Below, piece after piece: positions 25 to 1,081 of a stretch of DNA of 4,039 nucleotides. The notes under the pieces are model-generated. The model was given only the letters and a program-made list of their open reading frames with translations, was not told the DNA's origin and did no database searches. The stretch lies in the IMG/VR virus record IMGVR_UViG_2778261494_000010; one strand, written 5' to 3'. Numbering within the stretch: the first letter of the stretch is position 1; every line of letters begins with the position of its first letter. The translations under genes were made by a program, and so were the position numbers. The stretch is from a virus. Taxonomy: Duplodnaviria > Heunggongvirae > Uroviricota > Caudoviricetes.

Positions 25-347
25 AACACCGTCGGACAACGCAAATCGTAAATCAGCACGGAAACAGAAAACGGCAGTTCCCCCTGCACGAGGTCTTCCC
101 GCTCAGCAAGATCCGGATTCCGGTACAGCATCCCGGTCAGTCGCATGGCAGCCCCCTTCATCCGGGTTAATGCCTCACCAGGGATCAGCTCACCGTCCTC
201 ACTAATCACCTTATCCCGGCTGCCCTGGATGTAGGCCAGCAGCACGGCGGTAGCCTGACGAACCTTGTCCATCAGCATCTCATCATCCGCGTCATGGTCA
301 ACACGCAGATGTGCCTTGATTTCTTCCAGTGTCAGTAATGCTGTCAC
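21..347 (-). CDS. Phage head-tail connector / adaptor protein, gp6-like, 108 aa
   Basis: N-terminus MTALLTLEEIKAHLRVDHDADDEMLMDKV... and C-terminal LTRMKGAAMRLTGMLYRNPD fit the pattern I remember for gp6-like connectors (recognition by eye). Start is GTG at 347..345, preceded by a strong SD AGGAGG (359..354 on the minus strand) with a 6-nt spacer. The GTG overlaps the upstream gene's TGA (GTGA). Confidence 0.8.
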   Translation of the reverse strand: MTALLTLEEIKAHLRVDHDADDEMLMDKVRQATAVLLAYIQGSRDKVISEDGELIPGEALTRMKGAAMRLTGMLYRNPDLAEREDLVQGELPFSVSVLIYDLRCPTVL

Positions 348-1081
348 TTTCCACCTCCTGCATCCCGCCCACGTTTTGCAGCCAGAGTCCAGCCTGATGA
401 ATGAGCTTCTCCGGGCTTATCACCGGTCATACTGTTGCAGTGCCACAACGAGCCCCCCCACGTCACCGTATCGCCGGGGTGGTAAGTTTCGCCGATTCTG
501 AACACACCACGGTAGAGCATCACCGGCAGGGAAAATGTTTTTTCCGTACGCTGGCCACTGCTCTGCCGGACCACCACAGAGAACGACCGTTCACCCGTCA
601 TGCTGACGTCAATATCCGCCACCCCGTCAACCAGGCATTCCCATCCCCGCATCCCGTACGTTTTTTCATACGCCCGCCAGAGTCCACCCTGGTGTGTGGC
701 ATACGAGCCCCGGGGAAAGGATTTTTGATCGTCAATGGCGGGGAGTATTTCCAGTGCCGTGGCATCACGCCCGTCCTGCGGAGCCGGCAGGGCACTCACC
801 GCATCATTCACCGCCTTCTGCAGAACATCCGGATCGTAGTCACGACCGTCGCGCGGAACAGGAATATGGCTCACTGCCTCTTTCACCATCTGCTCAAGCA
901 TCGGACGCACATCATCACCCGTCACGCACTTCTGTAATACCACAGACTGAGAAGCCAGTTTTTCTTCAAACGTTTGTGCCTGCGCGGCTATTTTCTCCTC
1001 AAATGTACGCTGTAAATCCGCCAGCACCATGGCGAATTCTTCGCCCAGTGCACGAATAATGGACAGTTCCCGTTCCGTCAT
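344..1081 (-). CDS. Hypothetical phage head-module protein, 245 aa: coiled-coil N-terminus with internal repeats and a beta-rich C-terminal domain; possibly scaffold or decoration protein
   Basis: ATG at 1081..1079 overlaps the portal stop (ATGA), with a GGGGGA SD upstream. The N-terminal 50 aa are heptad-like and charged, with a tandem 11-aa repeat (QRTFEEKIAAQ / AQTFEEKLASQ). Two P-x-P-x-D-G-R-D motifs lie 25 aa apart (PVPRDGRD, PAPQDGRD). No obvious serine-protease motif and no capsid-like C-terminus. Function is not recognised. Confidence 0.7.
   Translation of the reverse strand: MTERELSIIRALGEEFAMVLADLQRTFEEKIAAQAQTFEEKLASQSVVLQKCVTGDDVRPMLEQMVKEAVSHIPVPRDGRDYDPDVLQKAVNDAVSALPAPQDGRDATALEILPAIDDQKSFPRGSYATHQGGLWRAYEKTYGMRGWECLVDGVADIDVSMTGERSFSVVVRQSSGQRTEKTFSLPVMLYRGVFRIGETYHPGDTVTWGGSLWHCNSMTGDKPGEAHSSGWTLAAKRGRDAGGGK

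Follow-up and report, generated by a model that had tools for sequence, protein, structure and literature searches.

A portal-linked, fiber-like protein family encoded between the portal and head-tail adaptor genes of proteobacterial phages and prophages

The window, by which we mean the whole 4,039-nucleotide stretch of viral DNA analyzed here (IMG/VR record IMGVR_UViG_2778261494_000010), carries on its minus strand a 245-aa gene placed, as an earlier note made from the sequence alone had described, between an HK97-type portal gene (1078..2442) and a gp6-like adaptor gene (21..347). The gene is real and intact (minus-strand ORF 1081..344, ATG start), and both of its junctions are 4-nt stop/start overlaps. 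E. coli O157:H7 chromosomes code for an identical protein, and the window's gene is part of a defective prophage of E. coli O157:H7. Two antisense ORFs (401..937 and 694..1059) had no support and were set aside. The features of the locus are as follows.

21..347, minus strand: gp6-like head-tail adaptor Ad1, 108 aa, the downstream partner (PF05135, E 1e-7; phrog_40, E 3e-30)
344..347, minus strand: GTGA overlap of the 245-aa gene's stop with the adaptor's GTG start (read from the sequence)
344..1081, minus strand: portal-linked, fiber-like coding sequence, 245 aa (ATG at 1079-1081, TGA at 344-346; ORF list)
1078..1081, minus strand: ATGA overlap of the portal stop with the 245-aa gene's start (read from the sequence)
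1093..1097, minus strand: run of five G (AGGGGGA on the coding strand), Shine-Dalgarno-like and the site of a G5-to-G6 change (junction alignment)
1078..2442, minus strand: HK97-type portal, 454 aa, the upstream partner (PF04860, E 1.4e-80, residues 54-382)
2654..3250, minus strand: C-terminal fragment, 198 aa, of an S78 protease::MCP fusion (99% match to aa 459-656 of phage 1717 gp58)

The earlier note had set out from the apparent absence of protease and capsid genes between portal and adaptor, a premise that proved wrong. Intact relatives have the order TerL - S78 protease::MCP fusion (644-657 aa) - small ORF - portal - family gene - adaptor; with the fusion upstream of the portal, the portal-adaptor slot is not the place for a protease or MCP in this lineage. 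Within the intact fusion, S78 occupies residues 59-163 and is separated from the capsid domain by about 230 residues. The fragment at 2654..3250, annotated by PGAP as 'incomplete, missing N-terminus', adjoins a deletion that makes the prophage defective. Terminase, protease, and most of the capsid gene have been lost, and the 245-aa protein therefore cannot serve its own prophage. The unfused 245-aa form also occurs, at 95% identity, in Lys8385Vzw, an induced, plaque-purified phage of siphovirus morphology (PMC7946995), so the short form functions in an actual phage.

An AF2 model built from a 67-sequence alignment (mean pLDDT 90.2; 90-94 across the C-terminal half) places helices at residues 3-49, 55-71, and 84-97 and ten strands between 127 and 235, bearing out the expectation of an alpha-helical N-terminus joined to a beta-rich C-terminal half. 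The parts of the protein map to the window as follows.

935..1075, minus strand: N-terminal amphipathic helix, aa 3-49 (AF2 helix, pLDDT 90-96)
941..1006, minus strand: 11-aa tandem TFEEKIAAQAQ / TFEEKLASQSV, aa 26-47, within the helix (shuffle test)
839..919, minus strand: stalk half-unit A, aa 55-81, a short helix (AF2, 55-71) then IPVPRDGRD
764..838, minus strand: stalk half-unit B, aa 82-106, a short helix (AF2, 84-97) then LPAPQDGRD (offset-25 pair score 42)
362..760, minus strand: conserved C-terminal beta domain, aa 108-240, with two CBM5/12-like lobes
374..517, minus strand: distal CBM5/12-like module, aa 189-236, YRGVF..YHPGDTVTWGGSLWHC..KPG..W

We judged internal repeats against the best internal pair in each of 300 residue shuffles (mean 23.1 +/- 3.4, maximum 36). 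The 11-aa tandem, which had been located at about 947..1012 and lies at 941..1006, exceeds this maximum with a BLOSUM score of 40 in an 11-residue window; its copies are identical at 7/11 positions in protein and 20/33 in DNA. So do the two PxPxDGRD motifs, PVPRDGRD (aa 74-81, nt 839..862) and PAPQDGRD (aa 99-106, nt 764..787), which are exactly 25 aa apart as claimed (window score 42). We also noticed a third, weaker internal duplication that had not been listed previously, formed by two CBM5/12-like halves at aa ~119-150 (..GGLWRAYEKT..W) and ~197-236 (..GGSLWHCNSMT..W); its score of 26 is not significant alone. The two stronger repeats differ in their conservation among homologues: the PxPxDGxD motif is family-wide, whereas the 11-aa tandem is kept only in close E. 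coli relatives, and elsewhere the region retains the helix but not the sequence repeat. The coiled-coil assignment likewise held in part. The N-terminus is helical, but its hydrophobic period of ~3.67-3.75 residues, found in the window protein and 135 homologues, is hendecad-like rather than the 3.5 of a classical heptad. This helix (aa 3-49), presumed to be an anchor or oligomerization element, is the least conserved part of the protein, its divergence resembling that of the portal C-tail and of the adaptor; a net charge of -4 each makes the N-terminal and stalk regions acidic.

Half-units A and B together make up one 54-aa (162-bp) unit, present in 1 to 7 copies in E. coli phages. Homologue lengths accordingly step by 54 aa (245, 299, 353, 407, 461, and 569 aa), and in phage 1717 the unit appears as a 162-bp tandem repeat of 3.7 copies that are 97% identical. 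Phages 1717 and 2851 have 4 units, Lys8385Vzw has 1. The window protein is the minimal, one-unit, shortest form of a family in which stalks contain from 1 to about 25 helix-PxPxDGxD units. Among representatives, the number of PxPxxG motifs per protein runs from 0 to 18, 57 of 150 contain at least five consecutive collagen-like G-X-Y triplets (the window protein has no such run), and 11 of 150 bear a SAYxxAxxxGFxG motif. The collagen-like runs in the stalks of many relatives would imply trimers. Distant members match tail-fiber PHROGs through their collagen-like and C-terminal modules.

The general architecture of the family is thus an N-terminal amphipathic helix, a stalk of units, and a conserved 140-aa domain composed of CBM5/12-like modules. 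The small twisted beta-sheet of a chitin-binding domain is found in the fold, and Y200, W208, W213, and W231, aromatic residues that may bind chitin or another GlcNAc polymer if exposed, vary little or not at all. By sequence, PF02839 scores 20.4 bits against the window protein, below the Pfam gathering cut-off of 26.2 bits, and 25.1-25.5 bits against homologues P0081, P0031, and P0061; precomputed tables record it for some family members. The likeness to CBM5/12 modules such as those of Serratia ChiB (8yug) and Streptomyces ChiC (2d49) is therefore sub-threshold for this protein, and unlike the modules of chitinases, that of the family is embedded in a larger, two-lobed 140-aa domain and has no catalytic partner domain. 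Beyond this CBM_5_12 match, we found no functional family in Pfam, NCBIfam, or PHROGs. Searches of PDB sequences with the single sequence or a profile returned only All3316 (E 0.39 and 0.015, respectively), a chitinase chitin-binding domain, and designed helical-repeat proteins. The helical repeats also drew matches to DUF4244, TetR_C_35, FliG_N, and V-ATPase subunit E, which contain no individually significant stretch and were discarded as spurious. The precomputed tables list PF28083 for multi-repeat homologues; we found no mention of it in the literature. Taken together, these data agree with the initial impression of a structural-type protein of an unnamed family, non-enzymatic and elongated.

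The family is large. Matches at E <= 1e-3 comprise 5,528 representative clusters at 50% identity from hosts among the Alpha-, Beta-, and Gammaproteobacteria, and a word search gave 1,450 homologues of the 245-aa protein. Across 80 IMG/VR loci, the order portal, family gene, gp6-like adaptor was kept wherever the contig was long enough; it recurred at 62 of 74 species-level genome loci from the three proteobacterial classes and in remote members from metagenomes. At nearly all junctions recovered from E. coli, Klebsiella, and related IMG/VR loci, portal stop and family-gene start overlap as ATGA; one locus reads CATGA. Burkholderia phage vB_SBP33 and Moraxella phage Mcat4, whose portals are 42-45% identical, share this gene order (TerL-protease-MCP-small ORF-portal-adaptor) without the family gene, and tblastn detected no family gene anywhere in the Burkholderia or Moraxella phages. 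Since phages with related portals and the same order lack it, the gene is accessory. Where the gene is present, its C-terminal domain equals the portal core in conservation and diverges in step with it (r = 0.96); in one example, identity is 47% for the portal, 55% for the C-terminal domain, and only ~29% for the adaptor. Conservation of this kind, unlike that of host-range fiber tips, calls for either a very conserved ligand or a phage-internal partner.

The adjacent HK97-type portal (PF04860) is coupled to the family gene and sometimes fused to it in frame. At 8 of ~40 E. coli-type junctions the G run has six G, yielding a single portal::fiber ORF of 812-1028 aa; the fused protein P0067 reads ..AMFRGDTEKMTEREL.. 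across the junction. All of the E. coli fusions stem from one G5-to-G6 change and keep the internal Shine-Dalgarno sequence and ATG. Fusions occur in three lineages, namely E. coli G6, P0200 (in two independent metagenomes), and Brevundimonas L144. We considered a programmed -1 frameshift at the G5 run (GGG then ATA, ATA being a rare codon in E. coli) as a source of fusion protein, and rejected it as a property of the family because phages other than the E. coli type lack the run. The occasional fusions suggest a physical link with the portal. As Rosetta-stone evidence, however, we down-weighted them, since overlapping stop and start codons make fusions trivial.

The same fusions account for how the family has been named. 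The protein matches phrog_2271 (E 1e-175) and phrog_1289 (E 1e-140), and it corresponds to positions 669-859 of the 859-position phrog_2271 profile, positions 1-451 of which are portal; the PHROG label 'portal protein' is due to fused members. The 245-aa protein itself has no portal-domain similarity (no match to PF04860), and the upstream ORF covers positions 2-321 of the 321 in that profile. G5-to-G6 in-frame fusions likewise explain the labels 'portal protein' and 'frameshifted portal' elsewhere: the family is systematically filed as 'portal protein' in PHROGs, GenBank, and PGAP, and RefSeq E. coli genomes present the portal and family genes together as one 'frameshifted' portal pseudogene.

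We found no proteomic, structural (cryo-EM), or genetic data for any family member in the literature, and no functional data in reports on Stx phage proteomics, PAJU2, BP-4795, 705R7, Lys8385Vzw, or neck and collar fibers. Comparison with known systems is nevertheless instructive. T4 fibritin (Wac), the protein of the neck whiskers, is dispensable for particle formation. Like neck fibers in general, it resembles the family as an accessory fiber of the portal or neck region that is anchored by its N-terminus, has a stalk of repeated segments, and ends in a C-terminal domain of a different kind; for our family, attachment at the neck is putative. We found no sequence or fold match between fibritin and the 245-aa protein, whose family has an 11-residue helix period in place of heptads, a stalk of helix-PxPxDGxD or collagen-like units, and a CBM5/12-like tip in place of the foldon. 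Neck fibers of bead-chain-like appearance are reported for the Anabaena myophage A-1(L) (PMC10966104). Collagen-repeat/ChiC_BD fibers (BFVD matches; tail fibers of Pseudomonas phage Pa193, gp47, and of Agrobacterium phage 7-7-1) share the type of C-terminal module and, with many family members, collagen-like stalks and tail-fiber motifs. Their genes, by contrast, belong to tail modules and evolve as mosaics, whereas the family studied here has a fixed place between portal and adaptor and diverges in step with the portal.

Several other roles deserve weighing against that of an external fiber. To a prohead protease of an unrecognized type sitting in the protease slot we give virtually no credence: nothing speaks for it except where the gene would stand in a canonical HK97 module, and, as had been anticipated, Pfam and NCBIfam gave no protease match (S78, U35, or ClpP). 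No protease-like fold was found either, and in intact relatives the S78 domain resides in the capsid fusion upstream of the portal. It is very improbable that the ORF is a pseudogene fragment, the C-terminal part of a ~860-aa portal split by frameshift. PGAP does label NZ_CP111098 6427..8442 'phage portal protein, frameshifted', phrog_2271 spans both ORFs over its 859 positions, and G6 genomes encode one fused ORF. Yet the unfused state, with its own ATG and overlap, is in the majority in E. coli, prevails at nearly all Klebsiella, Pseudomonas, Burkholderiaceae, and Rhizobiales loci, and is the arrangement in plaque-forming Lys8385Vzw; outside E. coli the G run is not kept, the upstream ORF by itself contains the whole Phage_portal profile, and the portals of related phages are 436-444 aa long and carry no extension. 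The helical, elongated N-terminal part, tight translational coupling to the portal, and location inside the head module would suit a scaffold-like protein or portal chaperone that aids portal incorporation and is absent from mature virions. We consider such an assembly-only role improbable, and the scaffold proposed in the earlier note unlikely, because vB_SBP33 and Mcat4 have related portals and identical order without the gene, and the ~230 residues between the S78 and capsid domains occupy the usual position of a built-in scaffold or delta segment, a role they may fill. A lectin-like beta domain and collagen-like stalks are moreover not scaffold features, and free variation in stalk length is hard to square with a size-determining scaffold.

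The remaining alternative, unlikely in our estimation but deserving of attention, is an internal head protein tethered to the portal crown, with stalk and CBM-like domain inside the head, where they would organize or retain the DNA end, or from which they would be ejected in advance of the DNA to bind periplasmic peptidoglycan. Its N-terminal helix would dock on the portal C-terminus, or continue from it in fused variants, and its CBM5/12-like domain would engage the peptidoglycan glycan strand, which is conserved across these proteobacterial hosts. The crown, formed by the portal C-terminus, faces the capsid interior, so the portal C-terminal fusions favor an internal location over an external fiber; in-frame fusions arose independently at least three times. 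Placement directly after the portal mirrors that of SPP1 gp7 and Mu gpF, extreme C-terminal conservation that covaries with the portal is easier to explain with a universal ligand such as peptidoglycan or DNA than with a surface receptor that varies, and unconstrained stalk length is expected of a tether. On the other hand, with a 4-nt overlap a single-base indel fuses the genes, making fusions cheap and weak evidence, and a portal-fused protein could not be ejected. Similarity to Phage_Mu_F is lacking (no PF04233 match at E <= 0.1), and fold and architecture are entirely different from those of gp7 and gpF. The acidic N-terminal and stalk regions also count against it, as do collagen-like stalks, ChiC_BD modules, and tail-fiber motifs, which are hallmarks of external fibers; we know of no internal capsid protein that has them. 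A crown tether of collagen-like or helical repeats with a CBM5/12-type tip would represent an undescribed class of internal portal-anchored head proteins, a proposal we regard as doubtful. At infection, such a protein would leave by way of the phage tail and attach to peptidoglycan once in the periplasm; alternatively, it would keep hold of the DNA end that goes first. Such a tether would explain why portal fusions recur and why the tip domain is conserved to a portal-like degree.

We tentatively favor an accessory portal-vertex fiber with a glycan-binding tip, while stopping a little short of calling it probable. Against it speak the sub-threshold CBM_5_12 score of the window protein, the portal-like conservation of the C-terminal domain, and the in-frame portal fusions. 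The protein has the architecture of a fiber, with an N-terminal attachment segment, a variable, repetitive stalk, and a C-terminal globular domain, and the earlier description 'decoration-like' is reasonable if taken to mean an accessory fiber. Presence in the virion, anchoring at the portal vertex, external exposure, oligomeric state, and glycan binding are what we infer from these features. As an accessory fiber, the protein would be translated together with portal and adaptor by way of the 4-nt stop/start overlaps. Its N-terminal helix of ~47 residues may anchor it at the portal vertex, either on the portal C-terminal tail or at the portal-adaptor junction, and/or drive oligomerization. The helix-PxPxDGxD units would build the stalk, with their copy number determining how long it is (1 here, up to 7 in E. 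coli, and ~25 elsewhere), and the two-lobed CBM5/12-like tip would bind a conserved glycan, probably a GlcNAc-containing polymer, to provide non-essential adhesion.

The family adjoins the portal in prophages of Entero-, Pseudomonas-, Burkholderia-, and Rhizobium-type hosts and includes the long-tailed Stx1 and Stx2c phages of EHEC. Correcting its label would affect thousands of annotations as well as calls of prophage intactness. If it is a portal-coupled fiber with a lectin-like tip, it would constitute an unrecognized neck appendage of siphophages or a new internal, portal-tethered protein. Because 1 to 7 stalk units occur naturally in otherwise near-identical inducible phages (Lys8385Vzw and 1717), the question is directly testable.

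The 245-aa ORF is a real, intact gene. All genes in the window lie on the minus strand; in order of transcription they are:

3885..3565, minus strand: ORF containing the P21-type holin gene, first transcribed
3243..3563, minus strand: truncated YdfR/DUF1327 gene, N-terminal part ('missing C-terminus' to PGAP in O157:H7 chromosomes)
frame from ~3250 to its end at 2654, minus strand: capsid C-terminal fragment, 198 aa ('missing N-terminus' to PGAP in O157:H7 chromosomes)
2388..2609, minus strand: conserved 73-aa ORF (phrog_829) between the capsid and portal genes, overlapping the portal start by 55 nt
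2442..1078, minus strand: HK97-type portal (PF04860, E 1.4e-80)
1081..344, minus strand: the 245-aa ORF
347..21, minus strand: gp6-like head-tail adaptor, last transcribed

Chromosomes of the E. coli O157:H7 type carry a prophage that matches positions 1-3774 at 99.97% identity. A deletion junction near 3243-3262 joins the N-terminal part of YdfR/DUF1327 to the last 198 codons of a protease::capsid fusion. Endolysin, spanin, terminase and protease are lost to it, along with the greater part of the capsid gene, and the prophage is therefore defective. The mechanically called ORF 3563..3153 (136 aa) is a chimaera that crosses into the capsid sequence in the wrong frame. Nothing about the 245-aa sequence itself is unusual for E. 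coli O157:H7; it is located in a dead prophage. Upstream of the holin gene, 152 bp (3775-3926) that include the hairpin GCCACCAGT..ACTGATGGC beside an A-run are unmatched in the closest complete genome, where 438 bp take their place; the last 113 bp (3927-4039) correspond to the 3' end of a NanS-p-like gene for a carbohydrate esterase of the SASA family.

The earlier note placed the gene where protease and capsid genes were expected, and guessed at a scaffold or decoration protein. In this lineage, both of the supposedly missing genes lie upstream of the portal. Intact relatives, among them phage 1717, Lys8385Vzw, a Klebsiella prophage and metagenomic phages, have the order TerS/TerL, S78 protease::MCP fusion, small ORF, portal, 245-aa-type gene, gp6-like adaptor, HCP, gp10-like, gp17 and tail tube. 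In the fusion, 644-657 aa long, the Peptidase_S78 domain spans residues 59-163 and the Phage_capsid domain 397-646, and the capsid fragment in the window matches residues 459-656 of the fusion at 99% identity; the portal-adaptor interval therefore has no missing gene. The instinct that the protein is not a protease and may be decoration-like was reasonable although its synteny premise was wrong: prohead protease identity was contradicted by our tests, the S78 domain sitting in the upstream fusion. Nearly all of the related head modules that were inspected have a small ORF of 53-76 aa at the position of the 73-aa ORF, and one of 59-62 aa separates capsid and portal in two phages without the 245-aa-type gene.

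Burkholderia phage vB_SBP33 and Moraxella phage Mcat4, whose portals share 42-45% identity with that of the window, keep the gene order, with the adaptor directly after the portal and no 245-aa-type gene between them; tblastn found no homologue of the gene in phages of Burkholderia or Moraxella hosts. The gene is therefore facultative within this head-module lineage, which counts against a core assembly role and contradicts the scaffold reading.

Both internal duplications described from the sequence are present: an 11-aa tandem repeat (aa 26-47, window score 40) and two PxPxDGRD motifs (aa 74-81 and 99-106, offset 25, window score 42), each beating the best internal pair of 300/300 shuffles (mean 23.1, sd 3.4, maximum 36). 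AlphaFold2 (pLDDT 90.2) agrees with the proposed helical N-terminus and beta-rich C-terminal half, predicting helices at 3-49, 55-71 and 84-97 and a beta domain of ten strands from 127 to 235. The coiled-coil claim held for a long amphipathic helix but not for a classical heptad, the hydrophobic period being ~3.67-3.75, not 3.5, in this protein and 135 homologues. This period agrees with the 11-residue repeat, and the hydrophobic stripe is nearly straight.

The protein belongs to a large family, with 1,450 homologues by word search and 5,528 matching 50%-identity clusters at E<=1e-3 (470 at E<=1e-30), spanning 212 to 1,237 aa and hosts among the Alpha-, Beta- and Gammaproteobacteria. A three-part architecture is constant: an N-terminal helix of ~45 aa, a stalk, and a conserved C-terminal (tip) domain of ~140 aa ending in W-x-L-A-[VA]-K-[RK]-G-R-D. 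The DGRD motifs, whose conservation had been in question, are instances of a PxPxDGxD motif conserved family-wide; the stalk is made of units of ~27 aa in which a short helix is combined with [ILV]PxPxDGxD or LPxPEPLPDI. The window's stalk is one 54-aa double unit; E. coli phage stalks have 1, 2, 3, 4, 5 or 7 (245, 299, 353, 407, 461 and 569 aa), and metagenomic members up to ~25 units. In phage 1717 gp60 (locus L002, 6166-6758), the stalk is encoded by 3.7 tandem copies of a 162-bp repeat, 97% identical, whose window counterpart is 764..919. Stalk copy number (1, 2, 3, 4, 5, 7) differs among otherwise near-identical E. coli prophages and could serve as a phage typing marker. The profile of a smaller family alignment (A3), compared with the PDB, weakly likens the helix-PxPxDGxD units to the designed helical-repeat proteins 8cwy and 5cwb (E about 2e-3), a hint that the 54-aa double unit could be a helical hairpin stacking into a solenoid rod instead of a coiled coil.

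Modelled alone, the C-terminal domain reached pLDDT 93.7, and Foldseek against BFVD matched it to collagen-repeat, ChiC_BD and CBM5/12 phage proteins. Pfam CBM_5_12 scores 20.4 bits here and about 25 in homologues, all just under the 26.2 cut-off; PDB sequence searches returned no solved structure homologous at the sequence level. Because a motif occurs twice (GGLWRAYEKT.. and GGSLWHCNSMT..), the domain appears to comprise two CBM-like lobes. In 57/150 representatives, five or more G-X-Y triplets follow one another without a break, mostly within the stalk, and 11/150 have a SAYxxAxxxGFxG motif; through these modules distant members match tail-fibre PHROGs. Across 112 loci, tip identity equals or exceeds portal-core identity, which it follows closely (r = 0.96; one example is 55% versus 47%, with the adaptor at only about 29%). 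The N-terminal helix, in contrast, changes rapidly, as do the portal C-tail and the adaptor. The tip is therefore no fast-evolving mosaic host-range determinant and would have to recognise something very conserved.

Portal, 245-aa-type gene and adaptor are adjacent among 80 IMG/VR loci wherever the contig is long enough, in 62/74 species-level genome loci and in distant metagenomic members. At nearly all junctions recovered from E. coli, Klebsiella and related loci the portal stop and the start of the 245-aa-type gene overlap as ATGA, and in the window the gene ends in a stop codon that overlaps the GTG start of the adaptor. In-frame fusions to the portal occur in three lineages: eight E. coli loci (IMG/VR), all through G5 to G6 in AGGGGGA (window 1093-1097, minus strand), giving one ORF of 812-1028 aa; a 1,237-aa protein in two independent metagenomes (L004/L005, 6001-9714), which combines a linker rich in Ser and Asp with about 20 LPxPEPLPDI units; and a 616-aa protein in the complete Brevundimonas sp. 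CEF1 genome (L144, 2609-4459), whose linker is rich in Pro and Ala and whose tip domain is reduced to its distal half. The G run doubles as the Shine-Dalgarno element of the downstream gene, and G5 leaves the two genes separate. These fusions account for the name 'portal protein' in PHROG and GenBank and for the RefSeq/PGAP call of a 'frameshifted' portal pseudogene, which for the G5 state appears to be an annotation artefact. A split-portal pseudogene is contradicted, since the unfused state is commoner and more widespread and is carried (95% identity) by Lys8385Vzw, an induced, plaque-purified siphovirus (PMC7946995).

Given the fibre architecture, the lectin-type tip (a module also used by phage tail fibres), the accessory status and the coupling to portal and adaptor, we tentatively read the protein as an accessory fibre at the portal vertex (neck) whose tip would bind glycans. 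That it is part of the virion, where it lies there, how it oligomerises and what it binds are all inferred; our literature search found no experimental data on any family member. The portal C-terminus faces the capsid interior in known portal structures, and the recurrent fusions to it, like a tip conserved about as well as the portal, would suit a protein held inside the capsid by a tether to the portal crown. We consider this main rival rather unlikely and give the fusions little weight because the 4-nt stop/start overlap makes fusion a single-base event. Natural single-ORF fusions would be useful for placing the proposed fibre relative to the portal, and natural length variants make this large, mis-annotated family of no assigned function experimentally tractable.
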